A stretch of 61,112 bases of DNA from Lachnospira sp. UBA4285 (GCA_002394965.1 DGVL01000088.1:1-61112); one strand, 5' to 3'. Positions 20,929 through 37,188 are shown, numbered from the stretch's first letter. A program made the numbers and translations. The notes: generated by a model from the letters alone, not told the origin.

Positions 20929-20971
20929 CATGAAGATGTGTTCTGGTGCCTGAGCCCAGAGAGGAGACAAT

Positions 20972-21856
20972 GTGCGGTTTTCAACGTCTACCAATATTTA
21001 CACGCGCAATGAGCGCGGCCCGTATTCCATTCCCATCGAAGAATCTGTCCGGGTGTGTGCGCAGGCAGGTTTTCACTATATTGATGCGAATCTCTGCGTG
21101 ATTGCGCAGCCGGGATTTAAAACCAGCATTCTGTGCGAGGATGACTGGGAGAACAGGATATGCCGCGTCCGGGATCTGGTGGACTGTCTGGGAGCTGAAA
21201 TCAGGCAGTCTCATTCCTGGTGGTATGCGAAATCGCCGATACCCTGCGAAGAACTGCCGGGAGGAAGTTTCGGAGAAGAGATGATGCGGCGGAGCATCCT
21301 CGCATCCGAAATTCTGGGCGTGAAGTGGATGGTCGTTCATCCGATTTCGGTAACGGAGAACGGAAAACGATCGCGGGAGAAAACGTTCGCCTATAATCTG
21401 CAGTATCTGGCCCGCTGGAATAAAGTGTGCAGGGAACATTCTGTTGGGATGGCAGTCGAGAATATGGTCGGTGTGCACGGCAATGAATGGGCCGATGTGG
21501 ATTTCCTGATCAAGCTGGTTGATGCACTGGATGATCCCAATGTGGGGATCTGTCTTGACACCGGCCATGCCAATATTTCCGGACTGGACGTGGCAGAATG
21601 TGTCCGCAAAATCGGCCCGCGCCTTCACGCGACGCATATCAATGACAACTATGCACGCGGAATGGATGAGCATCTTGCGCCGTTTAACGGGACGGTGAAA
21701 TGGCGGGAAGTTCTGAAAGCTTTGCGGGAGACAGGGTACCAGGATGATTTTGCGTATGAAATTCAGAACTACACCAACATGTATCCAAAGGAGCTTCAAC
21801 CGGAACTGATCCGCTTCACATACCTGCTGGGACAGTATATGCTGACGGAACTGTGA
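20972..21856 (+). CDS. Xylose-isomerase-like TIM-barrel protein (sugar phosphate isomerase/epimerase family), paralog 1
   Basis: 294 aa. GTG start 5 nt after GAGGAG. Motifs 'WMVVHP', 'ENMVG', 'GICLDTGHAN', 'LHATHINDN', 'FAYEI'. About 65% aa identity by eye to the 29445-30350 product. Confidence 0.8.
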   Translation: MRFSTSTNIYTRNERGPYSIPIEESVRVCAQAGFHYIDANLCVIAQPGFKTSILCEDDWENRICRVRDLVDCLGAEIRQSHSWWYAKSPIPCEELPGGSFGEEMMRRSILASEILGVKWMVVHPISVTENGKRSREKTFAYNLQYLARWNKVCREHSVGMAVENMVGVHGNEWADVDFLIKLVDALDDPNVGICLDTGHANISGLDVAECVRKIGPRLHATHINDNYARGMDEHLAPFNGTVKWREVLKALRETGYQDDFAYEIQNYTNMYPKELQPELIRFTYLLGQYMLTEL

Positions 21857-21953
21857 TGTGTTCATAATTTGCAAATCGCTGCGGTTTCATATTTTGCCCA
21901 GGATCTTATATTGAAGGATTTTCTGATACGAGCAGAGAAGGAGTTATTGTACT

Positions 21954-23189
21954 TTGGACATTGATGTCATGCAATACAGGAATAACACATTGCTTACCAG
22001 GTTCGTCGTGCCATATGGCACTGTGTCAATCGGAGCAAAAGCATTTAAAAATTGTGTAAACCTTAAAGAGATATCGCTGCCAGGCTCGATCAGAAATATT
22101 GATATGAAAGCTTTCCATAACTGTGTCAGTCTGGAGAAAATCGGTTATGCAGGGTCAAGAGAAGACTGGAAAAAGGTAGAAATTAGTCCGGTGGGAACTG
22201 AGTGCCTGCGCTCACCGGACTCTGCGCAGAATGAACAGGAGACGCTTGAAACTGCGCAATCAGGCGTGGGTGATGTGTACGCAAACATTTGCGCGCTTCT
22301 GCATCATCCGGATGGCGGATTTCACATAATTCCAGCGGATCTTATCGTGCCGGGCGTTTATGGAAAGACCGGAGACATGACGCTGCTCTTGTTCCCGAAC
22401 GGATGCACGATGCTGATTGACACCGGATACCGTGCGAACTTTCCAGCAGTACGGACTTTTCTGGAACGAACGCGCATCAGAAGTCTTGATTACATGGTTT
22501 TTTCGCACGCAGATCCGGATCACGTGACCAACGCCAGAGCAATCGGCGAATATCTGTACGCACATGGAGGCCGTATCGGGAGCTTTCTTTGGACAGGACA
22601 GAGGTATGGGCAGACCGTGGAGGATTTTAAGATATTTCTGACCAAACAAAATGTACCCATGAACTGTAGTATTCTGAGTGGTCGGGAATTTGTGATAGAC
22701 GGCGTTACGGTTTCGATTTTAAGTCCTGACAGGGAAGAGATTCGACTGCCTGCACAGGATGACAGCGTGCGGAACAATCAGTCTATGGTGATGAAGTTTA
22801 CATATGGGGAGGCTTCATATCTCACGGCGGGTGATCTGTACGAAGTGCAGGAGAAAAAACTCACTGAAAAGTACGGGCGAAAACTTAAGACGTCGGTGCT
22901 GAAAACCAATCACCATGGTGCGTACACTTCCAACTCTGAAGAGTGGATACATGCCACTGCGCCGCGGTTTGCTTTTACAGAGAACAATGACAATGGAAGT
23001 TCCGCGTTGGCGCAACTTTTGCAGAAAAATGCCATCCAATACGCCAGTACCGGATGGCAGGGAACTATGTTGATATCGATGTACAGGGACGGATGCTTGA
23101 AGATTTGCTCAGAATATCCGTTGGGAGAGCGCAATCTTCAGAGGATTGCGCTTCGGCCGGGACTGCTCATATGCGGATCTTCAGGATGA
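21954..23189 (+). CDS. Chimeric protein: N-terminal BspA-type leucine-rich-repeat segment fused to an MBL-fold metallo-hydrolase (ComEC C-terminal-like)
   Basis: 411 aa. TTG start 10 nt after AAGGAG. LRR-like 'IGAKAFKNCVNLKEISLPGSIRNIDMKAFHNCVSLEKIGY'. MBL motifs 'MLIDTGY', 'FSHADPDHV', 'KTNHHG'. No signal peptide. Confidence 0.6.
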   Translation: MDIDVMQYRNNTLLTRFVVPYGTVSIGAKAFKNCVNLKEISLPGSIRNIDMKAFHNCVSLEKIGYAGSREDWKKVEISPVGTECLRSPDSAQNEQETLETAQSGVGDVYANICALLHHPDGGFHIIPADLIVPGVYGKTGDMTLLLFPNGCTMLIDTGYRANFPAVRTFLERTRIRSLDYMVFSHADPDHVTNARAIGEYLYAHGGRIGSFLWTGQRYGQTVEDFKIFLTKQNVPMNCSILSGREFVIDGVTVSILSPDREEIRLPAQDDSVRNNQSMVMKFTYGEASYLTAGDLYEVQEKKLTEKYGRKLKTSVLKTNHHGAYTSNSEEWIHATAPRFAFTENNDNGSSALAQLLQKNAIQYASTGWQGTMLISMYRDGCLKICSEYPLGERNLQRIALRPGLLICGSSG

Positions 23190-23880
23190 ACTCATTGCGG
23201 AAGGCGGGGTAGTAGCTTTCACAGTACTCGACCAGGTCGTCATCAGAGTCCTGAACAGTCGAGTAGATGAAGAGTGCCATCGTCTTCTCCGGGATCTCCA
23301 TGAGATGGCAGCACCGGTTGTCGAGCTCGGCGATGTTGATGTGCTTTTCGATCCGCTTCCGGTAGATTCCATGTTCTGCAAGCGCCGCGTGGATGGATAT
23401 CTTTGTAAAGTCGTAATTCTGCAGGAAAAAGAGCTTTTTCGTAAAGTACGAAGTCGTCATGACAATGGGACCTTCCTGGAAGGAATTGTCAATGTACCGC
23501 ATCCGTGTCAGCTTGAGCACGGTTTCACCCGGAGACAGCTTCAGCATGTTCTGGACATGTTCCGGCGCCTCCATGAGGCGAAACTCGATGACATCACTCG
23601 CGGCCTTTTTTCCCCGTTTCTTCATCTCTTTGTCAAAACTTTCAATAAAGATCGTGGAGTCTTCCAGCTCTTTGGGCTTGGTGACATAAGTGCCCTTGCC
23701 CTTGATCCTTTTCAGATATCCTTCATTCACCAGGCGGGCCATGGCGGTGCGCACGGACGGACGGCTGATGCCGAATTGCTGAGCCAGTTCGATCTCCGTC
23801 GGGAGCTTCGTGCCCACCGGCCATTCCTCGTCCTGAATTTTTTTCATGATGTAGTGATATACCTGACTATGTAATGACAT
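23167..23880 (-). CDS. GntR-family transcriptional regulator, HutC subfamily (UTRA effector domain)
   Basis: 237 aa. wHTH 'LPTEIELAQQFGISRPSVRTAMARLVNEGYLKRIKGKGTYV'. Its 3' end overlaps the convergent upstream gene by 23 nt. It is divergent from the cassette B operon. Confidence 0.88.
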   Translation of the reverse strand: MSLHSQVYHYIMKKIQDEEWPVGTKLPTEIELAQQFGISRPSVRTAMARLVNEGYLKRIKGKGTYVTKPKELEDSTIFIESFDKEMKKRGKKAASDVIEFRLMEAPEHVQNMLKLSPGETVLKLTRMRYIDNSFQEGPIVMTTSYFTKKLFFLQNYDFTKISIHAALAEHGIYRKRIEKHINIAELDNRCCHLMEIPEKTMALFIYSTVQDSDDDLVEYCESYYPAFRNEFILKIRI

Positions 23881-23992
23881 ATATACTCCTCACTGTGACA
23901 CACGGCGATTGCAGTCACGAAGAAGCACGCCGGAAACGGTTTCTCTTTTGTGGATCTGTATGCAGCGCCTGCTCATCCTGGCAGGCAGATTC

Positions 23993-24004
23993 ATGTAATA
24001 ACAT
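23993..24004. promoter_or_regulatory. Candidate GntR/HutC operator, distal copy (ATGTAATAACAT)
   Basis: Exact reverse complement of the 12-mer at 24099-24110. It contains the GT..AC core typical of GntR operators (TGT-AATA-ACA). Confidence 0.4.
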
Positions 24005-24074
24005 TATAAGCCTATTATAAACTATAATTCACGAATCCGCACGCAAACCTTACAAAATATTTGTTTTATATGTA

Positions 24075-24103
24075 TTGACAAAATAATTTTTCGAGTCTAT
24101 GTT
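24075..24103 (+). promoter_or_regulatory. Candidate sigma-A promoter of the cassette B operon
   Basis: TTGACA (24075-24080), 17-nt spacer, TATGTT (24098-24103). Confidence 0.45.
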
Positions 24104-24110
24104 ATTACAT
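24099..24110. promoter_or_regulatory. Candidate GntR/HutC operator, proximal copy (ATGTTATTACAT), overlapping the -10 element
   Basis: 12-nt inverted copy of 23993-24004. It overlaps the TATGTT -10 hexamer. Confidence 0.4.
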
Positions 24111-24200
24111 ATAAAGTTCAAAAGTGTTATGAACAGTCGTGGTCAATCAGATCGTATTGTGTGCCGGAATGAAGATAAATCGGCAAGAAGGAGAATGTTT

Positions 24201-25646
24201 ATGAACAATACTGTAGTGAGAGCAGGAAGCGCTGTCCTTGCGGCAGCTATGCTGACAGGGCTGACAGCCTGCGGCAGCGGGACAGGAGGAGCCGGAACAA
24301 CGAAGGCGGCTGCATCGTCTTCCGGTGCAGCTGCGACGACTGCATCCGCCGGGGCGACGAAGGCAGCTGCGGGCAAGGAGAACACCGGGAAGACGATCAC
24401 GCTGAATCTCTGGGGCGGTGTCCCGGGAGAGTATGGGTATGACGAGATGGTCGAGAACTTCAACAAGGAGTTCAAAGACAAGGGAATCCAGATTGAGTAC
24501 ACGCGGTATAAGAATGACAGTGATGGCAATCTGCAGCTTGATACGTATCTTTCCAGCGGCGGCAGCATAGACATCTACATGGGATACGGCGGCATCTCAA
24601 GACTCAAGACTCGTGTCGAGGCCGGAACGGCGCTGGATATGACGGATTATCTCAAGACGAGGAATTTTGATCCGGTGCAAGAGCTTGGCGCGACCAATGT
24701 GACAGGCTATACGATCGATGACAAGTACTACGCTCTGCCGACAAAGTATGAAAACAAAGGCTGGATGGTCGTCAATGAGAACCTGTTCAAAGAGGCAGGA
24801 ATTGAGCTGCCGCTGAAAGGCTGGACATACGAGGAGTTCCGGGAAGCTGCCAAGAAACTGACCAAAGGAGACGGTCAGGACAAGACCTGGGGCATGTACT
24901 GGAATCTGAACACAACGCTGACTGATTCGACTGAATTTATCGCGTCACCACTGAAACAGTACCGGGTTTATACGGATGATGAAGGGACTTCAACCAATTT
25001 CGACAATGATCTCTGGAAGAAGGGACTTCAGCTGATTAAAGACACCTATGACGACGGAAGTGCCATGACCTATGAGACCGAGACAGCGGACAATGTGACG
25101 TTTGATCAGGTGTTCCTCGAGGGAAAGACAGCTATGTCGGCCGGTATCTACAATCTGAGAATTATCAACGATCTGGATACGTACCCGCATGACTTCACGA
25201 CGGCAATCGTGCCGTTCCCGGTTCCGGATGAGTCCTATCTGAGCGAATACGATTACTCCTACAGGCCGGGTGCCGGGGATCTGATCTGCGTGAATCCGAA
25301 GTCAGAGCACATCGAGGAGGCTATGGACTTCGTTCTGTGGTACATCAAAGGCGGTATGGCGCCTCTGGCAGCCAGCGGCCGCATCCCGCTCTGGAAGGGA
25401 TTCGACAGCGATCTGGTAACCAAGTCGCTCTGCGCAAAGGAAGGTGTCTTTGATCCGGAATCCGTAAAAGCCTATATGGCAGTCGACGGAACCAAGGCGA
25501 TCAAGTCCATCTCGACAAAGTATGACTCCAAGATCGGCGATGTCCGGAAAGAGGAGGAGCAGGCATTCCTTCTGGGTAAGGAAGATGTGGATACCTGCTG
25601 CCGCAATATGAAGACCAGAGCGGACGAGATTCTGGCCGGCGAATAA
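24201..25646 (+). CDS. ABC transporter extracellular solute-binding lipoprotein (cassette B)
   Basis: The ORF track starts at 24099. AAGGAG (24187-24192) favours the ATG at 24201 ('MNNTVVRAGSAVLAAAMLTGLTACGSG', lipobox LTAC) or the ATG at 24195. Ala/Ser/Thr linker. Homologous to the cassette C SBP. Confidence 0.85.
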   Translation: MNNTVVRAGSAVLAAAMLTGLTACGSGTGGAGTTKAAASSSGAAATTASAGATKAAAGKENTGKTITLNLWGGVPGEYGYDEMVENFNKEFKDKGIQIEYTRYKNDSDGNLQLDTYLSSGGSIDIYMGYGGISRLKTRVEAGTALDMTDYLKTRNFDPVQELGATNVTGYTIDDKYYALPTKYENKGWMVVNENLFKEAGIELPLKGWTYEEFREAAKKLTKGDGQDKTWGMYWNLNTTLTDSTEFIASPLKQYRVYTDDEGTSTNFDNDLWKKGLQLIKDTYDDGSAMTYETETADNVTFDQVFLEGKTAMSAGIYNLRIINDLDTYPHDFTTAIVPFPVPDESYLSEYDYSYRPGAGDLICVNPKSEHIEEAMDFVLWYIKGGMAPLAASGRIPLWKGFDSDLVTKSLCAKEGVFDPESVKAYMAVDGTKAIKSISTKYDSKIGDVRKEEEQAFLLGKEDVDTCCRNMKTRADEILAGE

Positions 25647-25660: not shown

Positions 25661-25715
25661 GCAGAGGCACCGGACGTAGTGATGAAATGCACATACGCCG
25701 GTGCTTCTGCTTTTT
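25661..25715 (+). terminator. Intra-operon terminator-like hairpin between the SBP and permease genes
   Basis: 13-bp stem GCAGAGGCACCGG / CCGGTGCTTCTGC (one G-U pair), ~24-nt loop, then TTTTT. Confidence 0.55.
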
Positions 25716-25744
25716 CTGTCAGTTTTCACGAGGGAGAATTTAAC

Positions 25745-26641
25745 ATGAATGGCAAAAGAAAAAAAGCGGTGCGCGAGCAGCTCACGGCGACCGTATTTCT
25801 TCTTCCGAGCCTGATCGGCCTTGTTCTCTTCAGTCTGCTTCCGCTGGTGTTTTCCCTTTTTATCAGCCTGACGGACTGGAATTTCCTGAACGGCATGGGG
25901 AACTGGAATTTCATCGGCTTCGAGAATTTTCTCGACATGTGGACGGATGAATGGTTCCTGGCTTCCATGAAGAACACATTCATCTACACGATTGTCGTCG
26001 TTCCGATCGGACTGTTCCTTGCACTTATCATCGCGGCTCTGATTGACAGCTTCATCAATGACAAGCTCGCCAATGTTCTCCGGGTGACGATGTACATGCC
26101 GAAGATCTGCAATATCGTTGCATCCGCCGCGATCTGGATCATGCTGTACTCGACATACGGCCCGTTCACCCAGCTGATGCGTCTGCTCGGATGGAAGAAT
26201 CCGCCGCATTTCCTCGCCAGTTATACCTGGGCGCTGCCGGCGATCATGCTGATGAGCATCTGGAGCGGCCTGGGGTATCATGTGTTTATCTATAGTGCCG
26301 GAATGGCCGGGATCTCGAGAGACCTGTACGAGGCGGCCGAGCTGGATGGAGCGGGTGCCTTGCAGAAATTCTGGTATGTGACAATACCGCAGCTTCGCCC
26401 GACCACATTCTTCCTGATGATAACCGGAATCATCGGGTCTTTCAAAGTCTTTGGATCGGTGAACGTAATGACGCAGGGCGGTCCGGGGCATTCGACGTAC
26501 ACGCTTGTGTATTACATCTATAAATCTGCATTTTCCTATTACAACATGGGGTATGCGTCCGCAATTGCGGTTATTCTGTTCCTGATTCTGCTCGTTGTGA
26601 CGCTGATTCAGTGGAAACACAACAACGGCAGCGGCGATTGA
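25745..26641 (+). CDS. CUT1 sugar ABC transporter permease (MalF/UgpA type), cassette B
   Basis: The ORF track starts at 25679, inside the hairpin. GGGAGA precedes the ATG at 25745 ('MNGKRKKAVREQL'). EAA loop 'YEAAELDGAGALQKFWYVTIP'. Confidence 0.88.
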   Translation: MNGKRKKAVREQLTATVFLLPSLIGLVLFSLLPLVFSLFISLTDWNFLNGMGNWNFIGFENFLDMWTDEWFLASMKNTFIYTIVVVPIGLFLALIIAALIDSFINDKLANVLRVTMYMPKICNIVASAAIWIMLYSTYGPFTQLMRLLGWKNPPHFLASYTWALPAIMLMSIWSGLGYHVFIYSAGMAGISRDLYEAAELDGAGALQKFWYVTIPQLRPTTFFLMITGIIGSFKVFGSVNVMTQGGPGHSTYTLVYYIYKSAFSYYNMGYASAIAVILFLILLVVTLIQWKHNNGSGD

Positions 26642-26653
26642 GGTGTGATGAAT

Positions 26654-27520
26654 ATGGCTAAAGAAAAAAGTAAAATGAGAAAAAAGAGCCCTGTTCCGAA
26701 AGTCGTCTGGAGCATTCTTCTGATCCTGTTTGCCCTGCTGATGATCACGCCTTTCCTTTGGATGCTGTCTTCTTCCTTCAAGCTGGAGCGGGACGTGATG
26801 AAATTCCCGATCGAATGGATACCGGCAAATCCGATCCTGAATAATTACAAGAATGTTCTGCACATCGGCGTCAAGAGCAAGGACTACCATTTTCTTCTGG
26901 CCTACGCCAACTCGATCAAGGTGTCCGTATTTGCCACTCTGACAAGCGTTCTGTCGGCGATGCTGGCCGGGTATGCATTCGCCAAGTTGAAATTCAAGGG
27001 CTCGAATGTGCTGTTCATCATCTATCTGATGCAGATGATGGTTCCGTCTCAGCTCACGCTGATCCCGAGATTCGTGGCGTTCTCGGAGCTCGGACTCGTG
27101 AATACGCACTTCTCCATCATTGCACCGAAAATCATCTCTGTCTCCGCGACCTTCATGATGCGGCAGGCGTTCATGGCCGTTCCGGAAGAACTCAGGGAAA
27201 GTGCCAAGATAGACGGAGCCGGAGAGTGGAAGACGTGCTGGAAGATCATGGTTCCGCAGATCCGTCCGACGATCGGCGCCATGACGACGGTAGCGTTTCT
27301 TGACAACTGGAACAGCTATCTGGATCCGCTCGTTTTTCTCTCAGACTGGAGACTGATGACGATCCCGATTGCCCTGAACCAGTTTGTATCAGAAGAAGGC
27401 TCTAAATACGGACTTATCTCGGCAGCCTGCTGCCTGACAGTAATCCCGGTATTTATCGTGTTCCTGGTCGGACAGAAGTTCTTCATCAAGGGACTGACCG
27501 TCGGAGCCGTCAAGGGGTGA
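26654..27520 (+). CDS. CUT1 sugar ABC transporter permease (MalG/UgpE type), cassette B
   Basis: In-frame starts exist at 26645 (GTG), 26648 and 26654. GAGGTG (26640-26645) favours 26654. EAA loop 'RESAKIDGAGEWKTCWKIMVP'. Confidence 0.88.
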   Translation: MAKEKSKMRKKSPVPKVVWSILLILFALLMITPFLWMLSSSFKLERDVMKFPIEWIPANPILNNYKNVLHIGVKSKDYHFLLAYANSIKVSVFATLTSVLSAMLAGYAFAKLKFKGSNVLFIIYLMQMMVPSQLTLIPRFVAFSELGLVNTHFSIIAPKIISVSATFMMRQAFMAVPEELRESAKIDGAGEWKTCWKIMVPQIRPTIGAMTTVAFLDNWNSYLDPLVFLSDWRLMTIPIALNQFVSEEGSKYGLISAACCLTVIPVFIVFLVGQKFFIKGLTVGAVKG

Positions 27521-27569: not shown

Positions 27570-29429
27570 ATGAACAATTTTAAAGAATATTCGCTGCAGT
27601 TTGATTTTATCGTCGTGGGCGGAGGCTTTACCGGCCTGTGCGCGGCGCTGGCAGCGGCAAGAAAGGGAGTCAGAACAGCTCTGGTCCAGGACAGGCCGGT
27701 GCTGGGCGGCAATGGCAGCAGCGAGATCCGGATGCACATATGCGGGGCATCGGATAACGGCACCAAGCCGGAACTCGCCGAAGGCGGCATTATCCATGAG
27801 CTGATGCTCTCCAACAAACGGGTGAATGACAGCTACAACTTCTCGATCTGGTCAGCCGTGCTCTTCGACAAGGCAAAACGGGAGAAAAATCTCACGGTCT
27901 TCTACAACACGACGATGCACGAAGTTCACCGCGCAGGCGGAAAAATCACAGAAATCGACTGTTATCAGATGACAACGGAGAAGAGTCTTCACCTTTCGGC
28001 GCCCATCTTCGCGGATTGTACGGGGAACGGGACGCTGTCCGCATTCGCTGGGGCGCAGGTCTTCACCGGCAGTGAGGGAAAGGACGCCTACGGTGAGCCG
28101 GACGCTCCGTCTGAGGCCAACAGCAACCGCATGGGCAACACCCTTCTCTTCAAGGCCAGAGACACCGGGCATCCGGTGAAATTCATCCCTCCGGTCCAGT
28201 GCATGCACTTTACGGAAGAACAGCTTCGCTTCCGCCAGCACACAGCCGAATCTCCCGTGCCGCAAAGCAGCGAGGGGGATGACGACCGGGAAGTCGGATG
28301 GATGTTCGGAGGGATCTGCCAGGACTATGGGTACTGGTGGGTCGAGATCCCGGGCACGTCAGAGGACATCGTGAGCGAGTACGAGGATATCCGGGATCAG
28401 CTGGTCGCCGCGATCTACGGCGTCTGGGATCATATCAAGAACGGCGGTGACCACGGCGCTGAAAACTACGAGCTGACATGGGTCGGAATGCTGCCGGGTG
28501 TGCGGGAGAGCCGCCGGATCGCCGGAGACTATGTTCTCAACGAGAAAGATATATTGAGCAACCGCCGCTTCCCGGATGCAGTTGCCTATGGCGGCTGGCA
28601 TATCGACAACCACGTTCCGCTCGGACTGTTTGACTTTGACAAGCTGCCGGCAACGGTCATCGGATATCCTGGATCCTACACGATCCCGTACCGAAGCTAT
28701 ATCGTCCGGGGGATTGAGAACTTATTTGTGGGAGGCCGGTGCCTGAGCGCATCCAAGCTCGGCATGGCTTCGTCCCGCGTCATGGGAACCTGTGCGATCG
28801 GCGGGCAGGCGATCGGAACTGCGGCAGCGCTGGCGGTGAAGTGTGGCGTGTCGATCCGGGAAGTTGATATCCGGAGGCTGCAGCAGGAGCTGCTTAAGGA
28901 TGACTGTTACATTCCGGGCGTTGCCAACGAAGATGAAAAGGATCTTGCCCGCACAGCCCTGATCACGGCTTCTTCCGAGGCGGAAGGCTTTGCTGCGGCG
29001 AATGTGGTAAATGGTGTTTCCAGGACGATTGGCGGGAAGAGCAATGCCTGGCATTCCCGGCCGTTACGCGGACAGGCGGCTGCGGACAATTCCTGTGAGT
29101 GGCTGCGTCTCTCTCTTAAGGCACCGGCAATTGTTTCACAGGTTCAAATAACGTTTGACTCAAACTTTGCGGTTGAGAAAAAGATCACGCTGTCCTCAAG
29201 AAGGCAGAATCAGCAGAAGATCGGCGTGCCGGCAGAGCTCGTGAAGGACTATGATGTGGAACTGATACATGACGGCCGCGTGGTCGCAAAGAGCGAACAG
29301 AGGGAGAACTATCAGAGACTGAACCGTGTGAATTTCCAGGAAGGCGTCTTATGTGACGCCGTGAGGATCCGGATTCTCTCTACAAACGGAATCCCGGAAG
29401 CAAGGCTCTTTGAAGTGCGGATTTATTGA
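27570..29429 (+). CDS. FAD-dependent oxidoreductase with a C-terminal galactose-binding-like (F5/8 type C-like) beta-sandwich domain, paralog B
   Basis: 619 aa. 'FDFIVVGGGFTGLCAALAAARKGVRTALVQDRPVLGGNGSSEIRMH'. Conserved core 'GVWDHIKNGGDHGAENYEL', 'RESRRIAGDY', 'AYGGWHIDNH', 'IPYRS', 'GGRCLSAS', 'GGQAIGTAAA'. The C-terminal ~150 aa end in 'ARLFEVRIY'. No signal peptide. Confidence 0.8.
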   Translation: MNNFKEYSLQFDFIVVGGGFTGLCAALAAARKGVRTALVQDRPVLGGNGSSEIRMHICGASDNGTKPELAEGGIIHELMLSNKRVNDSYNFSIWSAVLFDKAKREKNLTVFYNTTMHEVHRAGGKITEIDCYQMTTEKSLHLSAPIFADCTGNGTLSAFAGAQVFTGSEGKDAYGEPDAPSEANSNRMGNTLLFKARDTGHPVKFIPPVQCMHFTEEQLRFRQHTAESPVPQSSEGDDDREVGWMFGGICQDYGYWWVEIPGTSEDIVSEYEDIRDQLVAAIYGVWDHIKNGGDHGAENYELTWVGMLPGVRESRRIAGDYVLNEKDILSNRRFPDAVAYGGWHIDNHVPLGLFDFDKLPATVIGYPGSYTIPYRSYIVRGIENLFVGGRCLSASKLGMASSRVMGTCAIGGQAIGTAAALAVKCGVSIREVDIRRLQQELLKDDCYIPGVANEDEKDLARTALITASSEAEGFAAANVVNGVSRTIGGKSNAWHSRPLRGQAAADNSCEWLRLSLKAPAIVSQVQITFDSNFAVEKKITLSSRRQNQQKIGVPAELVKDYDVELIHDGRVVAKSEQRENYQRLNRVNFQEGVLCDAVRIRILSTNGIPEARLFEVRIY

Positions 29430-29444
29430 AGAAAGGACGGAACT

Positions 29445-30350
29445 ATGCGTTTTTCAACATCGACCAATATATATTGTTACGATCAGGGAAAACCCTATGC
29501 TATTCCGATGGACGAGTCCATTCAGGTGTGCGCCAAAGCCGGCTTCCGGTATGTGGATGCCAATCTGTGCGGCATCACAAGACCCGGTCACGCCATAAGC
29601 GCACTCTGCCGGGACGACTGGGAGGAGGAAATCCGCCGGTACCGCCAGGAGGCGGACCGCCTTCATGTAAAAATAGCGCAGTCCCACGCCTGGTGGTGCA
29701 CAAAGCCGACCGTTCCGTATACGGAACTTCCGGAAGGCGACTTTGGCGAGGAGATGATGCGAAGAAGCATTCTTGCCTCCGAAATTCTGGGAGTAAAGTG
29801 GATGGTTGTTCATCCGTTTTCTGTCACGGAAAACGGCAAGCGCTCAAAAGAGCGCAGCCTCCCGTACAACCTGACGTATTACCGGCGCTGGAATGAAGTG
29901 TGCAAAGCGCATCATGTCGGCATGGCGATCGAAAACATGGTCGGCGTGCACGGCAATGAGTGGGGCGACATGGACTTCCTGATCCGGCTGGTCGATGCTG
30001 TTGCAGACCCCAATGTCGGGATCTGTCTTGACACCGGGCACGCGAATGTAACGGGACTTGACGTGGCGGAGTGTGTCAGAAAGGCAGGAAGGCGACTGCA
30101 CGCGACACACATCAACGACAATTATGCCCGGGGGGTGGACGAGCACCTGGCACCTATGTGCGGAAACGTCAAGTGGCCGGAGGTTATTAAGGCGCTGAAA
30201 GAGGTCGGCTATGAGGACGATTTCTCCTACGAGATCCATAAGTATACCCATATGTATCCGAAAGAACTTCAGCCGGAATTAATCCGTTTTACATATCATC
30301 TCGGCATATGGCTGCTGCAGGAGAACGGCTTTTCAGAAGCCCTTGATTGA
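29445..30350 (+). CDS. Xylose-isomerase-like TIM-barrel protein (sugar phosphate isomerase/epimerase family), paralog 2
   Basis: 301 aa. It starts 15 nt after the flavoprotein gene. It has the same motif set as paralog 1: 'WMVVHP', 'ENMVG', 'GICLDTGHAN', 'LHATHINDN', 'FSYEI'. Confidence 0.8.
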   Translation: MRFSTSTNIYCYDQGKPYAIPMDESIQVCAKAGFRYVDANLCGITRPGHAISALCRDDWEEEIRRYRQEADRLHVKIAQSHAWWCTKPTVPYTELPEGDFGEEMMRRSILASEILGVKWMVVHPFSVTENGKRSKERSLPYNLTYYRRWNEVCKAHHVGMAIENMVGVHGNEWGDMDFLIRLVDAVADPNVGICLDTGHANVTGLDVAECVRKAGRRLHATHINDNYARGVDEHLAPMCGNVKWPEVIKALKEVGYEDDFSYEIHKYTHMYPKELQPELIRFTYHLGIWLLQENGFSEALD

Positions 30351-30364
30351 GACACGGCATAAAT

Positions 30365-30712
30365 ATGGGCAGAAAAAAACTGCTTGTGATGTCAAATGAC
30401 GCCCTCGTCTACGAAGATCTGAAAACTTTGGAGAACATGCCGGAACTCACGCCGGTGTTTCGGGAAGGCGCGATGGTGAAGCGGGTGCGGACGGTGTATC
30501 CGTCCGTGACGTATCCCTGCCATGTGAGCATCGCTTCCGGCTGCTATCCGGACAAGACCGGTGTGGTGAGCAACGAAGCCGTGCAGCCGGGGTGCTGCGG
30601 GCCCAAGCCGTGGCAGTGGTTTCACGATGCGGTGAAGTGCCAGGACATCTTTGACGCGGCCAAATCGGCCGGACTCTCAACAACCGCTTATTCCTGCTTT
30701 ACAGGCGCATAA
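30365..30712 (+). pseudogene. 3'-truncated paralog of the NPP-type phosphodiesterase gene (13032-14342)
   Basis: The first ~104 codons are collinear with the full-length gene ('KKLLVMSNDALVYEDLKTLENMPEL...YPSVTYPCHVSIASGCYPDKTG...CCGPKPW'). A 50-nt block is identical at 30512-30561 and 13195-13244. Homology decays after ~30676, and a stop at 30710 lies 6 nt from the AraC gene stop. The 'SDHG' metal-site region is absent. Confidence 0.8.
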
Positions 30713-30718
30713 AGTGAT

Positions 30719-31651
30719 TCATTTATCCGAAAAATGTTTTCTATATTCTGATGGGGTCATATGTACGGTCTTTTTGAAAACGGAAATGAAAGAAGACATC
30801 GTATGAAAACCAGAGCACTGGAAAGCGTCAGTTACCCTTTGCCCGCTTTCCAGTGCTTTTTTTGCGACATCAATTCTGCGACGAGCTATGTATTCGGAAA
30901 TGTTAATATTATAGTATTGGCGGAAAAGACGTGACAAGTATTCCCGGCTATAGAAAAAGTGGGTGGCTATTTCTGAAGTTGATGAAATCGTCTGCAGATT
31001 GTCATCAATATAGGATTTGATATTCAAAACATTCTGTGGAAGCTGAAAGACGTTATTAGAGTTTTGGCACCCTTTTCGGCTGATAAGAACAAACAAGTGA
31101 AGAATATAGATATACATATCTAGAATGGCATCAGAATTCTGTCCATTAAAAACAAATTGAAGCTTATTGAGATCATAGTAATACTCGCAGAGGGATTCTG
31201 AACTGATTTCAAGATAGACCGAAGTTTTGAGCTTCAAAAAAGCTCTTGGCATTTCGCCGCCAAATGCCAGAAAGAACTGCGGGGTAAAGTAAAATACATA
31301 CCGTTCGTATTCACTTTCTTCCGACTGGTGTGCGGTATGCATAATATGCGGAGGAATGATAAGAATAGAGCCGCGGCTCGGAATAATCTCCCGGTTATCT
31401 GATATATAGGATATTTTTCCTGATATATATATATCCATTTCATAAAACAGATGATAGTGGAGCTTTTCCGGAAATATGGACATGTTATACGTTGTTACAC
31501 GATGGGAAAAGATAAGGTTCTTACCAAGATAGTAATCTTTCCAGCCATATTCGCTTTGAAAGGCATGAAGGCCGGTCATTGAGAACACCTCTTCTATATA
31601 GCGGCGAGTTGCTATGTGAGATTGATAATACTGATCTAATACTGAATCCAT
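30719..31651 (-). CDS. AraC-family transcriptional regulator (N-terminal cupin-like sensor, C-terminal double HTH)
   Basis: 310 aa. The C-terminus 'FFYSREYLSRLFRQYYNINISEYIARRRIDVAKKAL...FHTMSSFISVFKKTVHMTPSEYRK' is typical AraC/XylS. The gene is AT-rich. Confidence 0.88.
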   Translation of the reverse strand: MDSVLDQYYQSHIATRRYIEEVFSMTGLHAFQSEYGWKDYYLGKNLIFSHRVTTYNMSIFPEKLHYHLFYEMDIYISGKISYISDNREIIPSRGSILIIPPHIMHTAHQSEESEYERYVFYFTPQFFLAFGGEMPRAFLKLKTSVYLEISSESLCEYYYDLNKLQFVFNGQNSDAILDMYIYILHLFVLISRKGCQNSNNVFQLPQNVLNIKSYIDDNLQTISSTSEIATHFFYSREYLSRLFRQYYNINISEYIARRRIDVAKKALESGQRVTDAFQCSGFHTMSSFISVFKKTVHMTPSEYRKHFSDK

Positions 31652-31660
31652 GCTGCTCCA

Positions 31661-31672
31661 ATATCACATATT
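31661..31672 (+). promoter_or_regulatory. 12-nt repeat ATATCACATATT, copy 1, overlapping a 14-bp perfect palindrome ACATATTAATATGT (31666-31679)
   Basis: Exact direct repeat of 31937-31948. It lies 10 nt upstream of the AraC start codon. Confidence 0.35.
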
Positions 31673-31936
31673 AATATGTTATTTGCAAAACTCCAATTTA
31701 TTTACTGAAATATATCATACCATATACAATATGACCAAACAAGATTTAAGAAGAGAAGCTAGATGAGAGATTTTCGCTGCATGGCTAGCTGAATTCTTTG
31801 ATTTATATATTGACTTAATATTAATCTCTTTTGGATATTTATGGTGAAATATGGTGTATAACTATTTTTAATGTGAAATAATATAATAAATGAAATATTT
31901 TACCATATTAGAAAGCCAATCAACAATAAGCTTCTG

Positions 31937-31948
31937 ATATCACATATT
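31937..31948 (+). promoter_or_regulatory. 12-nt repeat ATATCACATATT, copy 2 (candidate AraC half-site upstream of the island operon)
   Basis: Exact copy 276 bp from copy 1, and about 120 bp upstream of the flavoprotein start. Confidence 0.35.
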
Positions 31949-32065
31949 GATAAGTTTAATGTCAAATAAAGGAAAGAATTTTTAGTTTTTGATAAGTACA
32001 ATGTAACTAAATTAAAGAGTGTGAATAATTAATTGAAAATCTGTTCGCACAGGGGGAGGTTGGTT

Positions 32066-33886
32066 GTGCTTAGAAAAGTGCTGCATACTGTAAAACATGC
32101 CTGTGATGTCTGCGTGATTGGCGGCGGAATTGGTGGTATGTTCAGTGCAGTTTCTGCCGCTAGAAATGGTGCGAAGGTTGTTCTGATGCAGGATCGTCCG
32201 GTCCTGGGAGGAAATGCGAGTTCTGAGATACGAATGTGGATTTCCGGGGCAGGAACCAGAGTACGAGATCTTCAGGAAACAGGCCTTATGGAAGAACTGT
32301 TGCTGGAGAACATGTATCGAAATCCGACCCGGAATTATACGATTTGGGACAGTATTCTTTATGAGATGATCAAGAAAGAACCTAACATTGAACTGCTTCT
32401 GAATTGCTCCTGCTGTGAGGCGGATATGGATAATGATAGTATCAGTTCAATATCAGGCTTCCAACTTACTACATATACGTGGCATGTGGTTAGTGCTTCT
32501 ATTTTCATCGATTGTTCCGGTGACAGTATACTTGCTGAACTCACAGGCGCTGAGTACCGGGTTGGACGGGAAGCAAAAGATGAATTCAAAGAAGAGTTTG
32601 GACTGTCAGAAGCTGACAGTAAAACTATGGGTATGAGTCTGCTGCTCCAGGCGAGAGAAACAGACCATCCGGTGAGTTTTACACCACCTTCCTGGGCATA
32701 TACGTTTAAAACAGATGCGGATATGCATAATAAACCGCATGATTTATACCATATAAATACAAATTTCTATTGGATAGAACTTGGTGGGGAATATGACACC
32801 ATACATGACACAGAGAAAATTCGTGATGAATTGCTGAAGATTGCGTTTGGAGTCTGGGATCATATCAAAAATCAGGGAGAACATGGGGCCGATAATTGGG
32901 AGCTTGAATGGATCGGTTTTCTCCCAGGGAAAAGAGAAAGCCGCAGATATATTGGAGATTACATATTAACGCAGAATGATGTTGAGAAACATCCGGTTTT
33001 CGAGGATACTGTCGCGTATGGCGGATGGCAGATCGACAATCATCTCCCTGGCGGTTTTTTTATGAATGGAGAAAATGGTGGACATCTGGAGAAAAGAAGG
33101 CTGACGGAACCGTATGGTATCCCGTATCGCTGCCTGTATTCCAAAAATATTCGAAACCTAATGTTTGCAGGCCGAAATATTAGTGCAACCCATATTGGAA
33201 TCAGCACAACGAGAGTGATGGGGACAGTTGGCGTACTAGGGCAGGCGGCTGGTACCGCGGCGGCAATAGCCGTGAGAAATGGGTTGCTCCCAAGAGAAGC
33301 CGGAAAGCAGAAGATAAAAGAAATACAGAACCAGCTTCTTGAAGATGATTGCTTCCTTCCGGGGTTTACGCGTCCTATATCAGACCTTACTAAAAAGGCG
33401 AAGATGCAGTGTGATTATGGTGATGGCTCTGCTTTAATAAATGGGATGGATCGGAGAATATGGGGGAGAGATAACGGATACTATGGCAAAACAAATCAGG
33501 CAATAACGTATCGATTTGATCGGCTGACAGAGATTCATGGTTTTCGGCTTGTGACAGATAGTGATTTAAACCGAGAGTATGTGGAAGGAAATCCGGATGG
33601 TGTAAATACATCCAGCGTCTTGTTCTATCCGGCCAGCTATCATCACACAACTTTTGGGTTTCCGCAGTGCATGCTCAAATCGTTCCGGATTGAGGCAGAG
33701 AATGCAGATGGAAGCTGGAAAACTGTCTATAGGGAAACAGCCAATCATCAGCGGCTTATACGAAAGCCATTGTCAGTCTGTACAACAGCGATTCGTCTAA
33801 TTCCACTTTCGACATATATGAGTGAAAGAAAAAATGAGGACTATGGGAGTTCAACAGCGCATATTTTTGCTTTTGAAGTAAATTGA
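32066..33886 (+). CDS. FAD-dependent oxidoreductase with a C-terminal galactose-binding-like domain, paralog C (in the low-GC island)
   Basis: The ORF track starts at TTG 32033. GGGGGAGG (32052-32059) favours the GTG at 32066. 'CDVCVIGGGIGGMFSAVSAARNGAKVVLMQDRPVLGGNASSEIRMW', 'GVWDHIKNQGEHGADNWEL', 'RESRRYIGDY', 'AYGGWQIDNH', 'IPYRC'. It ends in 'HIFAFEVN'. Confidence 0.8.
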   Translation: MLRKVLHTVKHACDVCVIGGGIGGMFSAVSAARNGAKVVLMQDRPVLGGNASSEIRMWISGAGTRVRDLQETGLMEELLLENMYRNPTRNYTIWDSILYEMIKKEPNIELLLNCSCCEADMDNDSISSISGFQLTTYTWHVVSASIFIDCSGDSILAELTGAEYRVGREAKDEFKEEFGLSEADSKTMGMSLLLQARETDHPVSFTPPSWAYTFKTDADMHNKPHDLYHINTNFYWIELGGEYDTIHDTEKIRDELLKIAFGVWDHIKNQGEHGADNWELEWIGFLPGKRESRRYIGDYILTQNDVEKHPVFEDTVAYGGWQIDNHLPGGFFMNGENGGHLEKRRLTEPYGIPYRCLYSKNIRNLMFAGRNISATHIGISTTRVMGTVGVLGQAAGTAAAIAVRNGLLPREAGKQKIKEIQNQLLEDDCFLPGFTRPISDLTKKAKMQCDYGDGSALINGMDRRIWGRDNGYYGKTNQAITYRFDRLTEIHGFRLVTDSDLNREYVEGNPDGVNTSSVLFYPASYHHTTFGFPQCMLKSFRIEAENADGSWKTVYRETANHQRLIRKPLSVCTTAIRLIPLSTYMSERKNEDYGSSTAHIFAFEVN

Positions 33887-33919
33887 ATGAAAATTCAGGA
33901 GATGAAAAGGAGGAAGTAA

Positions 33920-35345
33920 ATGAAGAAGGCAATATCGGGAGTTATGGCATCATTACTTGCTGTAACAATACTGGCAGGATGCGGAGGAGAAAGCGGTGGT
34001 GGCTCAATATCGTCAGGAAACACCGGAACAACGAAGTCAGCTGGAGTGACAACCACAACTTCTTCCACCATTTCTGGAGAACCGGTTTATATCGATCCAG
34101 ATGCGGCAAACGTGACGGGAACCGTTAACTTCTATACGGCTTTCGCGGGCGAGAATGGAACAGATGCTCTCATTAAGGAATTCAACTCCTATTATCCTAA
34201 TGTTGAAGTGATTCCTACAGTTTATAAGAATAACGGGGATGGAAATGTAGGGCTGGATACAGCCATTATGGCTGGAAATGTAGACGTAATTCTGAGCTTC
34301 GGTGTGGCGAATACATCAGCGCGCTGGGACAACAAATTGCTGATGGATATTACGGATAAATTAAAGAATGACAACCTGGATCTCGTAAAAGAATGGGGGA
34401 CTGATACATATAAATCATCAGATGGGAAGGTGTATGTATTTCCTTCAGGAGGTTTATCAGTTTACATTGCCATCAATAAAGACAAGTGGGATGCTGCCGG
34501 ACTTGGCGATATACCGTCAGAATGGACTTGGGATGAATAATATTGATGCATGCCGCAAACTTACTGTGAAAGACGCATCTGGTAAAACAATTACTTATGG
34601 TGGATCAGACTTCAATCAGACAGATTATTGGACATATTCGGTGCGCCAGAGTAAAGGAAAGAATGCTTTTTATAAAGAAGATGGTACAGCTGATTTTGAC
34701 AATCCGCTTTTTGCAAAGGTGCTGCAGAGAGAGCTGGATGCTGAAAACGAAGGCATTTGGTATTCAAAAGCAAATTATCTGGCAGATTCGACGAAATCCA
34801 GGGATATGTTTTTAAATGGTACGAATGCCACAACAGTTGAATCTATTCTGACACGTTACATTGCAGCGGCTGATCCGCAGTTTAAAATTACATATGCTCC
34901 ATATCCGGTCAACGAAAAAGGCGAAACGAATTATATGGCGGGAGCAGTGCCGAATTCTTTCGTGGGTGTAACAGCTAATACCAAATCTCCACAGGCAGCT
35001 TATGATTTTGCCAAGTTCGTTGCAACTTATGGGAATAAATATATGTATGCGGCTGGGCATGCAGGAAAATGGACCGGCATGAAAACAGATGATATTCTTG
35101 CCGTGGTATTTGGCTCGAAAGAAGCTGCTGAAAAGTATATTGATACAGACAGTTTCGAAAAATATGTGGTGGCGACCGGACAACCAGCTTATTCTGAGAA
35201 TGATATTACTGCATATTCAGATATTCAGTCGTTGATCAGTGAATATACGAAATACTGTCTGAACGGAGAGACAACTGTTTCGGAAGCAATGAAAGAGATG
35301 CAAAGCGCCGCGAATGAGGCAATTCAGGATGCTAAAAAAGGATAA
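33920..35345 (+). pseudogene. ABC solute-binding lipoprotein gene (cassette C) interrupted by a +1 frameshift near 34536-34541
   Basis: Two overlapping ORFs (33920-34540 and 34422-35345) together align with the cassette B SBP. Frame 1 ends '...IPSEWTWDE*'. The next frame continues '(N)IDACRKLTVKDASGKT...', against cassette B 'KGWTYEEFREAAKKLTKGDGQDKT'. Removing one A from GAATAATATT restores 'WDEYIDACRKL'. Lipobox 'LAGCGG'. Confidence 0.75.
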
Positions 35346-35364
35346 TTAGCTTTCGATATAACAA

Positions 35365-35407
35365 AGAGCTGCCGTATCAGAAATAGATATTGCTGAGCGG
35401 CGGCTCT
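35365..35407 (+). other. Intercistronic stem-loop after the SBP gene (mRNA stabiliser/partial terminator)
   Basis: 10-bp stem AGAGCTGCCG / CGGCGGCTCT (one G-U pair), 23-nt loop, no U-tract. Confidence 0.35.
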
Positions 35408-35429
35408 CTTGTGACAGGAGGAGTGGTAA

Positions 35430-36311
35430 ATGTCTGAAAGACAGAAAAGAGAAAACAGGGCGGGATGGCTTTTTATGCTTCCAGCTATGGTCCTATTTAT
35501 TACCTTGGTCATCTTTCCGGTGATTATGTCCCTGTTTCTTTCGTTCACCAAGTGGAACTTTCTTTCAGGTGTATCTGGTATTAAATGGGTTGGGCTGAGC
35601 AATTTTGTAAAGCTTCTTACAAGAGACAGGAAGTTCAGCATTGCATTAGCAAACACATTCATATATGCCGTGACAACAGCACCTGTTTCAATTGTACTCG
35701 CTTTGATCTTTGCGTATATGATCAATGACAAGGTATATCTGAAAAAGTTTAACCGAATGTGCTTTTTTATCCCTTATATCTCGAGTATGGTGGCATTAAG
35801 TGCAGTATTTCGCTTCTTGTTTCGAAGCGATGGACCTATCAATTCAGTGCTGATACATGTTTTTCATGTTTCTGTTGTGCCAGAATGGCTTACCAGTACC
35901 AGTTTGTGTAAAATACCGATCATTTGTGTGATGATCTATGCAGGGATAGGCTATTCATTGATCGTATATATGGCGGCCCTGCAAAATGTACCTGGTGAAT
36001 TATATGATGCAGCGGCAGTTGATGGCGCAGGAAACGTTCGGACATTCTGGAAAATAACTATTCCGCTGGTTTCCCCGACAACGTTTTATTTGAGCATTGT
36101 TCGTCTGATTGCAGCTTTCAAAGTATTTACCGCCATTAATGTTATGGGAATGGCTGATACAGCTCCCAGTATAGTTACACAGATATATACCAATGCATTC
36201 GGAGCGTATGAATTTGGAAACGCCAGTGCAGAAGCCTGGATCCTTGTTTTCATTATCCTTGTTATTACTGGCATTCAGTTCCTGGCTCAGAAAAAATGGG
36301 TAGTGTATTGA
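35430..36311 (+). CDS. CUT1 sugar ABC transporter permease (MalF/UgpA type), cassette C
   Basis: 293 aa. AGGAGG RBS. EAA loop 'YDAAAVDGAGNVRTFWKITIP'. Confidence 0.88.
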   Translation: MSERQKRENRAGWLFMLPAMVLFITLVIFPVIMSLFLSFTKWNFLSGVSGIKWVGLSNFVKLLTRDRKFSIALANTFIYAVTTAPVSIVLALIFAYMINDKVYLKKFNRMCFFIPYISSMVALSAVFRFLFRSDGPINSVLIHVFHVSVVPEWLTSTSLCKIPIICVMIYAGIGYSLIVYMAALQNVPGELYDAAAVDGAGNVRTFWKITIPLVSPTTFYLSIVRLIAAFKVFTAINVMGMADTAPSIVTQIYTNAFGAYEFGNASAEAWILVFIILVITGIQFLAQKKWVVY

Positions 36312-36341
36312 TGAAAAATAAGAATTGAGAGGTCGGGAGCT

Positions 36342-37172
36342 GTGAAAAGAGAAAAGCAAGGAACCAAAGTAATTAACACAATATGGGTTACGGTGTGTGG
36401 CTGCCTGTTCTTGATGCCATTGCTTTGGATGTTGTCTTCATCCGTAAAGTCAGGGCCAGAAGTTTTTGCGGATGATTTTAAATGGATACCGGAAATAATT
36501 CGTTGGGACAATTATATTAAGGTTTGGACGAATGCGAATGCTCCTTTTTGGAGAGCAATGTGTAACTCCCTGTTCGTATCGGTAGTGAGTACGCTGGGGC
36601 AGCTTCTGGTTTCATCGATGGCTGGCTATGCTCTCGCAAAGATTCAGTTCAAGGGAAAACATGCTGTTTTTATTGCAATGATGGCAACGATGATGATCCC
36701 GGGCCAGGCTACAATAATCCCCAAATTTATACTATTTCGTACAATTGGGCTCTATGATACCTTATGGTCACTGATTCTGCCGGGATGGTTCAGTATCACA
36801 TCGATCTTTCTGCTGAGACAATTCTATATGGGTCTTCCAAATGACCTTATGGAATCTGCAAAAGTTGATGGAGCTGATCACTTTTTAATCTGGTACCGGG
36901 TTTTGATGCCGCTGACAAAGCCGGTCATGGTAACAGTCATCGTATTGTCTTTCATCAATTCGTGGAATGAATATCTGCATGCTCTGATTTTTCTTCCATC
37001 AAATCAACTCTACACGGTTTCACTTGCGATTCAATATTGGATGAATATGACTGATGAATATAATCTCATGATGACGGCAGCGGCGAGTGCTGTGATCCCA
37101 GTGATTATCCTGTACCTGTTTACTCAGAAATATTTTATCGCGAGTATTGCAACTACTGGTGTGAAAGGGTGA
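36342..37172 (+). CDS. CUT1 sugar ABC transporter permease (MalG/UgpE type), cassette C
   Basis: 276 aa. GTG start. EAA loop 'MESAKVDGADHFLIWYRVLMP'. Confidence 0.88.
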   Translation: MKREKQGTKVINTIWVTVCGCLFLMPLLWMLSSSVKSGPEVFADDFKWIPEIIRWDNYIKVWTNANAPFWRAMCNSLFVSVVSTLGQLLVSSMAGYALAKIQFKGKHAVFIAMMATMMIPGQATIIPKFILFRTIGLYDTLWSLILPGWFSITSIFLLRQFYMGLPNDLMESAKVDGADHFLIWYRVLMPLTKPVMVTVIVLSFINSWNEYLHALIFLPSNQLYTVSLAIQYWMNMTDEYNLMMTAAASAVIPVIILYLFTQKYFIASIATTGVKG

Positions 37173-37188
37173 AAGAAAAGAAAGAAGA

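Follow-up and report, generated by a model that had tools for sequence, protein, structure and literature searches.

We analysed a 61,112-nucleotide (nt) stretch of DNA from Lachnospira sp. UBA4285 (GCA_002394965.1 DGVL01000088.1:1-61112), referred to here as the window, with a focus on two adjacent genes on its plus strand. The first (27570..29429) encodes a flavoprotein of 619 amino acids (aa), comprising a PF12831 domain (aa 12-441) and a β-sandwich tail (~aa 464-619, nt 28959-29426). The second (29445..30350) encodes a 301-aa TIM barrel, an MJ1311-like member of AP_endonuc_2 with nine endonuclease IV-type metal ligands. The pair ends a unit with one solute-binding protein (SBP) gene and two permease genes, which lies beside a divergent GntR/UTRA regulator. 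The two genes form a genuine, widely conserved and uncharacterised enzyme module, and no described system matches it.

The open reading frame (ORF) calls bear out an initial annotation of the window, which had described ORFs of these two lengths 15 nt apart; the spacer contains a Shine-Dalgarno-like GAAAGGA. The motifs that it had listed are present as well: LGGNGSSEIRMH at aa 45-56 and the C-terminal end ARLFEVRIY in the flavoprotein, and VVHP (H123), CLDTGHAN (D196, H199) and YEI (E263) in the TIM barrel. The GxGxxG motif of the flavoprotein was also found, at aa 17-22 instead of 16-21. Neither protein has a signal-peptide-like start, the Rossmann motif of the flavoprotein running from aa 12 and the TIM barrel beginning with MRFSTSTNIY, in agreement with the cytoplasmic location proposed earlier for the flavoprotein.

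Conservation of the pair was surveyed from both sides. On the TIM-barrel side, 80 metagenome loci were grouped into 16 clusters at 90% identity, seven of which were informative, sharing 40% identity or more with the query and having 3 kb or more of flanking sequence. All seven have a PF12831 gene within 3.2 kb of the TIM barrel. These loci usually also carry a matching SBP, two permeases and GntR, and often a metallo-β-lactamase (MBL), a HAD protein and a zinc-dependent alcohol dehydrogenase (Zn-ADH). Among genome loci anchored on the flavoprotein, a TIM barrel was found in eight of the 14 informative ones. The linkage is asymmetric, being strong from TIM barrel to PF12831 and weaker in the reverse direction. 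The bare two-gene unit, with a spacing of 15-22 nt, recurs in unrelated Hadza-gut contexts, and in one locus (L014; L numbers designate individual loci) the stop and start codons of the pair overlap. Cultured carriers are represented among the homologues by proteins of Hungatella sp. and Lacrimispora celerecrescens. The coupling proposed in the initial annotation is kept in other genomes, and chance adjacency of the two genes was rejected on the basis of this co-conservation.

The PF12831 flavoprotein

The 619-aa protein matches PF12831 over the full length of the profile (aa 12-441 against positions 1-416 of 416; E 3e-90; 303.9 bits, cutoff 27), which confirms the family guessed earlier from the sequence. 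As had also been surmised, it resembles neither GMC nor Gfo/Idh/MocA enzymes, with no Pfam or NCBIfam match to those models at E<=0.01. Binding of flavin adenine dinucleotide (FAD) is suggested by the GxGxxG motif, an acidic end of β2 and a GGNxSSE motif, the last of which we take to be akin to that of the FAD_binding_2 family. No NCBIfam equivalog matched the protein. It has more than 7300 relatives, those with a name being annotated only as 'FAD-dependent oxidoreductase', and its orthologues are 60-78% identical.

The AlphaFold model of the flavoprotein (mean predicted local distance difference test score, pLDDT, 86.8; predicted template modelling score, pTM, 0.91) is all-β from ~aa 464, with pLDDT above 90 across most of aa 510-619. 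The tail of the query itself reaches 25.7 bits against F5_F8_type_C, below the Pfam cutoff of 28.2. In 46 homologues, tail domains were matched at E<=0.01 by F5_F8_type_C (28/46), DUF7402 (30/46) and NedA-like models (10/46). These matches support the carbohydrate-binding-like tail of the initial annotation as probably galactose-binding-like, with the query remaining sub-cutoff.

The link to carbohydrates comes from gene context and is broad, with PF12831 homologues (36-41% identity) set in carbohydrate-utilisation loci of several phyla. In Streptomyces, a homologue lies between GH35 and β-galactosidase genes together with a sugar ATP-binding cassette (ABC) system. Catenovulum has one adjoining GH2, GH16 and a solute symporter, Chondrinema has one within a SusC/D locus, and those of Flammeovirga and a haloarchaeon are found among sulfatases. 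On a Paenibacillus plasmid the homologue is 3' of sugar ABC genes, and on another it follows a TIM barrel of a different, non-tri-metal type and a Gfo/Idh/MocA gene. A carbohydrate or polyol is the type of substrate that the evidence favours for the flavoprotein. Actinobacterial xanthan-utilisation loci also contain an 'FAD-dependent oxidoreductase', whose family could not be assigned, directly next to an ABC system of one SBP and two permeases (PMC12772297; bioRxiv 10.64898/2026.04.20.719765). The 'xanthan lyase' XalA, considered as a possible PF12831 protein, is listed in a review as a member of polysaccharide lyase family 8 (PL8), and this lead was dropped.

Single-sequence and profile searches of the flavoprotein against the PDB gave matches confined to the N-terminal dinucleotide motif. 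Foldseek retrieved two-domain flavoproteins, namely FrdA/SdhA, flavocytochrome c3, geranylgeranyl reductase, MnmG and 3-ketosteroid dehydrogenase, and this fold match is generic because the template modelling score (TM) is only ~0.3 and the identity 10-15%. A characterised member, a solved structure and functional literature were looked for in PF12831 and none was found; the publications retrieved for PF12831 or FAD_oxidored were limited to lists of flavoproteomes and a paper on mushrooms without relevance here, and those retrieved for an FAD-dependent oxidoreductase with a TIM barrel, 3-keto or glycoside terms concerned GMC-type enzymes only.

The initial annotation had called the protein an oxidase. 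Since the Lachnospiraceae host is anaerobic, an O2-dependent oxidase is unlikely, and a dehydrogenase or redox-neutral enzyme would be the better fit. Many Arg residues of the flavoprotein (R312, R315, R316, R390 and R403) are invariant, which suggests an anionic substrate. These residues, the GGNxSSE motif and the best Foldseek matches (FrdA/SdhA, flavocytochrome c3 and 3-ketosteroid dehydrogenase) would also suit a reductive or non-redox enzyme, either an ene-reductase or desaturase with a sugar acid of the unsaturated or keto type as substrate, or a flavin-dependent sugar rearrangement. Its link to the TIM barrel would then be a loose one. The flavoprotein orthologues that have no TIM barrel nearby are in line with such a role. 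However, the fold match is of the generic kind described above and the linkage from TIM barrel to PF12831 is strong, and we consider this explanation distinctly unlikely.

The metal site of the TIM barrel

The TIM barrel matches PF01261 (AP_endonuc_2) with an E-value of 1e-28. It is not a close orthologue (over 60% identity) of a characterised isomerase, a possibility raised in the initial annotation, as its identity to solved structures is at most 22%. No NCBIfam equivalog was matched, every score being below its cutoff: nfo reached 32.5 against 129.65 and CbiR 25.3 against 105, and the best partial matches, IolO and psicose epimerase, scored 44.7-44.9 (psicose epimerase 44.9) against 300. 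A search of the PDB with the family profile yielded MJ1311 of Methanocaldococcus jannaschii (2.5e-26 over 209 columns), ketose 3-epimerases and IolI (1e-15 to 1e-10), endonuclease IV (1e-11 to 1e-7) and YcjR (2e-4). Among the 60 listed of the 62 PDB matches at E<=10, no deglycosidase or eliminase was present, and the top 50 Foldseek matches of the model contained no keto-glycoside or C-glycoside lyase. Foldseek did not discriminate between the subfamilies, all of which had a TM of 0.7-0.8.

Nine positions correspond to the ligands of a trinuclear site (H81, H123, E163, D196, H199, H222, D232, H234 and E263). When the family is aligned with E. coli Nfo by hhalign (probability 96.9), eight of them fall in register with tri-zinc ligands: H81, H123, E163 and D196 align with Nfo H69, H109, E145 and D179, and H199, H222, D232 and H234 with Nfo H182, H216, D229 and H231. 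Across 152 distinct members, which span 34-97% identity, each of the nine is kept without change in 149-152. MJ1311 has all nine, with its segments VHA, VVVHP, ENM, DIGHAN, VHAHDN, DDEHL and IEN aligning, and the 2014 paper on its structure reportedly described conserved tri-zinc residues and no DNA groove. The core ligands E163, D196, H222 and E263 are accompanied by five further invariant endonuclease IV ligands. We regard the metal site as the decisive feature of the protein; judged from its residues, it favours an endonuclease IV-type three-metal set over a one-metal lyase site, and likewise favours a multi-metal chemistry that would most simply be the cleavage of a phosphoester.

The nine ligands could also belong to a true DNA-repair endonuclease IV that has come to lie in the operon by accident, and MJ1311 was formerly listed as a predicted endonuclease IV homologue of M. 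jannaschii (PMC2770678). Such an enzyme would not be expected to score so far below the nfo cutoff, to occur in two 71%-identical copies in one catabolic region, or to be found consistently within ABC/PF12831 operons. A bona fide Nfo identity was rejected on the sub-cutoff score and the catabolic setting, and we consider it highly improbable.

According to the initial annotation, the flavoprotein would be a new class of oxidoreductase that oxidises a glycoside at C3 or C2, after which the TIM barrel, as an eliminase of the DgpC/CarB/LgdB type, would β-eliminate the aglycone. The tight coupling and co-conservation of the two genes, the carbohydrate-binding-like tail and the presence of the core Glu-Asp-His-Glu ligands are in keeping with this mechanism. 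The profile search argues against it, as it found endonuclease IV and MJ1311 and, among the matches listed, none of the lyases, and so do the nine invariant tri-metal ligands: known keto-glycoside and C-glycoside lyases use a single metal, which in the C-glycoside lyases is Mn2+ (1His/2Glu/1Asp/1Lys) in an active site built with a separate β-sandwich subunit (PMC8563793). No gene for a small β-subunit, a component of C-deglycosidases only, adjoins 29445-30350, where the sole nearby β-sandwich is the flavoprotein tail. The anaerobic host, in which an oxidase is unlikely, also weighs against it. We found no specific support for the mechanism, none of our results showing C3/C2 oxidation or elimination, and consider it rather unlikely.

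Alternatively, the TIM barrel might be an epimerase or isomerase akin to YcjR, IolI, IolO or FrlC, which would act on a keto-sugar or inosose made or used by the flavoprotein and pass its product to the Zn-ADH. After MJ1311, ketose 3-epimerases and IolI are indeed its best-scoring characterised relatives in both sequence and fold, the best partial NCBIfam matches are of this type, and polyol dehydrogenases recur nearby. Nevertheless, these partial scores are far below the equivalog cutoff of 300, and ketose 3-epimerases and IolI lack H123, D232 and H234 together with the 5-residue segment that bears D232 and H234. A one-metal enzyme would leave the invariance of the extra ligands unexplained, and we consider this an unlikely role for the barrel.

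Operon, neighbourhood and related modules

The regulator beside the operon (23167..23880, minus strand) is of the GntR/HutC type, with a GntR helix-turn-helix domain (Pfam GntR, 2.5e-19) and a UTRA domain (9e-25). The initial annotation had spoken of a GntR-controlled operon; the gene does adjoin it, but is divergent from the SBP gene and lies outside the operon. Orthologues of the regulator occupy the equivalent position in L010, L014, L016, L019 and L025. An inverted-repeat search of the intergenic region (23869..24110) revealed three copies of the 12-mer ATGTAATRACAT, which has a GT-N-AC core, and these are candidate operators for the HutC-type regulator. One copy overlaps the SBP start as annotated and also a promoter-like site found by a promoter scan (TTGACA-17-TATGTT, 24075-24103).

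The SBP is a CUT1-type sugar-binding lipoprotein (24099..25646, plus strand; SBP_bac_8, 2e-18), whose true start is likely near 24195 (MFMNNTVV...AAMLTG). In the PDB, its relatives are SBPs for sugars and oligosaccharides, and no NCBIfam equivalog matched it. The two permeases follow on the same strand (25679..26641 and 26645..27520), both matching BPD_transp_1, the first with 60-92% identity to related loci. A scan from 24099 to 30350 found no terminator-like site on the plus strand. No glycoside hydrolase (GH) was found in the operon, nor in those Clostridial loci that were annotated. A sugar-type importer without such an enzyme would suit the oxidise-then-eliminate mechanism, as would a Zn-ADH at hand to reduce a keto-sugar product.

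Phosphoesterase-type genes recur beside the TIM barrel, including MBL, HAD, His-phosphatase, PF01663, GDPD and PAP2 members. In the window, His_Phos_1 and MBL genes flank the TIM-barrel paralogue, and a truncated type I phosphodiesterase (PF01663) fragment (30347..30712, plus strand; 121 aa, profile positions 1-107 of 342) lies 3' of the 29445 gene, beginning at its stop codon. Fuller-length matches to this fragment stand beside ABC permeases in L022, and beside ABC permeases and PF12831 in L050. Elsewhere, an MBL gene overlaps the TIM stop codon (L010), a HAD gene is found immediately 5' of the TIM barrel (a class of 21 loci), and the gene order is TIM-TIM-MBL-FeADH-GDPD (L012). Distant relatives of the TIM barrel (37-40% identity) occur in the arrangements ABC-TIM-RpiR-GH4 (L124, 8001-11050) and Gfo/Idh/MocA-PAP2-TIM (L125, 5607-8867, where PAP2 overlaps the TIM start). 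As these two arrangements differ, the barrel is combined with varied redox or glycoside enzymes and phosphatases. In L124, the family member accompanies an ABC importer and GH4, an oxidation-elimination enzyme in the place held elsewhere by PF12831, which again would accord with oxidation followed by elimination. The Paenibacillus plasmid on which PF12831 accompanies a Gfo/Idh/MocA gene and another type of TIM barrel argues in the opposite direction, since it implies that PF12831 need not be the C3 oxidoreductase there.

Further copies of both genes are present in the window, which contains four PF12831 paralogues (18713, 27570, 32033 and 38538) and two TIM barrels (20972 and 29445). An upstream sister module (18713..23189, plus strand) comprises a tail-less PF12831 gene (18713-20074; 27% identity to the 619-aa protein), His_Phos_1 (20149-20928), a TIM-barrel paralogue (20972-21856; 71% identity to the 29445 gene) and an MBL-fold protein (21954-23189), all on the plus strand. 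The MBL-fold protein has an N-terminal BspA-type LRR_5 segment, and its MBL domain is similar to the ComEC C-terminal domain. Downstream of the pair are a PF12831 paralogue (38538..40481, plus strand; 47% identity to the 619-aa protein) and the Zn-ADH, a polyol/sugar-type enzyme (40498..41562, plus strand; Pfam ADH_N and ADH_zinc_N). The Zn-ADH has family-level NCBIfam matches to threonine, idonate, inosose and galactitol-1-P dehydrogenases, and its orthologues in related loci are 62-66% identical.

The closest relatives are two uncultured Lachnospiraceae, L016 and L024 (78-81% identity). In the DNA comparison, both genomes align collinearly with 24188-30316 (81% identity) and the match then resumes at 38650-40479; in both, the orthologue of the 38538-40481 PF12831 gene is directly 3' of the TIM barrel. 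Because the match jumps in this way, we read the 8.3-kb, low-GC (~0.42) segment at 30317..38649, which is absent from both relatives, as inserted DNA that now separates the TIM barrel from the PF12831 gene ancestrally downstream of it. The statement in the initial annotation that the pair represents the last two intact genes of the operon therefore holds for this genome but not for L016 and L024, where PF12831 follows. The inserted segment is a second, related catabolic module with AraC (minus strand), a PF12831 paralogue (32033-33886; 37% identity to the 619-aa protein), a frameshifted SBP, two permeases, GDPD and HAD. Its SBP gene (33920-35345) is broken into two ORFs that overlap in different frames; the N-terminal one aligns with SBP residues 75-221 and the C-terminal one matches SBP_bac_1 positions 135-305, and the gene is probably a frameshifted pseudogene.

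L016 also lacks a second segment, of ~15 kb (7056-22348). Encoded there are DeoR, an ABC system including an ATPase, a hydantoinase/oxoprolinase-like ORF of 807 aa and two ORFs with no Pfam match, in addition to the tail-less PF12831 gene, His_Phos_1 and the TIM-barrel paralogue. The window as a whole looks like an accretion of related modules, a hotspot at which PF12831/TIM modules gather. Loci of the L055/L068 type (e.g. L068, 355-20861), seen in 28 metagenome loci of a common human-gut organism, contain the window's parts list in a 20-kb array with the order P1-P2-PF12831-TIM-MBL-...-PF12831(tail-less)-TIM-PF12831-SBP-P1-P2-PF12831-GntR-MBL.

A proposed catabolic module and its known counterparts

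We tentatively propose that the pair serves in the catabolism of a carbohydrate or polyol that is imported and probably phospho-substituted, with the flavoprotein as a dehydrogenase and the TIM barrel as a multi-metal phosphoesterase; this is possible rather than probable, and our confidence in it is low to moderate. The CUT1 ABC importer, presumably repressed by the GntR/HutC-type regulator, would take up a carbohydrate or polyol conjugate, probably one with a phosphoester or other anionic substituent. The cytoplasmic PF12831 protein would bind FAD, grip the sugar moiety with its discoidin-like tail and dehydrogenate the substrate without O2, being similar in fold and motifs to the fumarate reductase and 3-ketosteroid dehydrogenase superfamily. 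The TIM barrel, with a two- or three-metal centre of the endonuclease IV type, would cut the phosphoester either of the substrate or of the product, and would not β-eliminate an aglycone from a keto-sugar. The MBL, HAD, His-phosphatase, PF01663 and GDPD proteins and the Zn-dependent polyol dehydrogenase might then complete the pathway.

Several observations weigh against this proposal. Neither protein family was found to have a biochemical record, and no activity is known for MJ1311. That the nine ligands are conserved is no proof of phosphoester chemistry, and the core residues E163, D196, H222 and E263 also serve mononuclear sugar isomerases and lyases. Six of the 14 flavoprotein loci have no TIM barrel nearby, and the three of these TIM-less loci that are annotated have unrelated or housekeeping-type neighbours. 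The type of phosphoesterase varies from locus to locus and could merely reflect the downstream handling of sugar phosphates, and some architectures comprise the flavoprotein and TIM barrel only, with no phosphoesterase. Finally, the distant TIM relatives beside GH4 or Gfo/Idh/MocA fit keto-sugar chemistry.

In a bolder interpretation, which seems to us fairly unlikely, PF12831 proteins with a discoidin-like tail would be a class of cytoplasmic carbohydrate-active enzymes that has gone unrecognised. In loci with an ABC importer and no GH, their oxidation by the flavin would open or cleave glycosidic or glycosyl-phosphodiester links, together with the tri-metal, MJ1311-like TIM barrel. By analogy with the β-subunit of C-deglycosidases, the tail of the flavoprotein could then act as the β-sandwich partner of the barrel.

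PF12831 is a very large family in which we found no characterised member, and its proteins occur in glycan loci that range from gut Clostridia, Streptomyces and Paenibacillus to marine Bacteroidota and Gammaproteobacteria and to a haloarchaeon. A second orphan is the MJ1311-like barrel, which places the metal centre of endonuclease IV inside catabolic operons. Once defined, the substrate of the module would give a function to both families, and could bring to light a way in which abundant human-gut anaerobes break down phospho- or otherwise substituted glycans without hydrolysis. The genes for the SBP, the flavoprotein and the TIM barrel represent a compact and testable set for this.

The closest solved relative of the TIM barrel is MJ1311 (PDB 3wqo, 'D-tagatose 3-epimerase-like protein'), with 22% identity, a TM of ~0.8 and the same nine positions; it is archaeal, however, and has no known function, operon partner, PF12831 or ABC context. 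Nfo and CbiR share the TIM fold; eight of the ligands align with those of E. coli Nfo, and E263, the ninth, is invariant. CbiR itself is a small-molecule phosphodiesterase of the AP_endonuc_2 superfamily from a gut bacterium (PMC7733943). The TIM barrel scores far below the model cutoffs of both, and its setting is a sugar-import operon instead of a DNA-repair or cobamide locus. Ketose 3-epimerases, IolI and YcjR give the best Foldseek E-values (4.7e-14, TM ~0.75) and profile matches of 1e-15 to 1e-10, yet are only 14-17% identical and lack the three ligands and the segment described above.

The systems DgpA/DgpBC, CarA/CarBC, LgdA/LgdB1 and BT2156-2160 likewise have an oxidoreductase beside an AP_endonuc_2 barrel in a carbohydrate-uptake locus, and the barrels share the core Glu-Asp-His-Glu. 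Here, the oxidoreductase belongs to PF12831 instead of GMC or Gfo/Idh/MocA, there is no β-sandwich subunit gene, and the barrel, with its five extra invariant ligands, is not detectably related to theirs beyond the superfamily. GH4, in which a single cytoplasmic protein performs oxidation and elimination with bound NAD+ and Mn2+, resembles the module in its bound redox cofactor, in its cytoplasmic location and in its position beside the ABC importer and TIM barrel of L124; it is unrelated in sequence, and the analogy is one of gene context from this single example. Both proteins of the module come from known superfamilies, whereas the pairing of PF12831 with an MJ1311-like TIM barrel is new to described systems.

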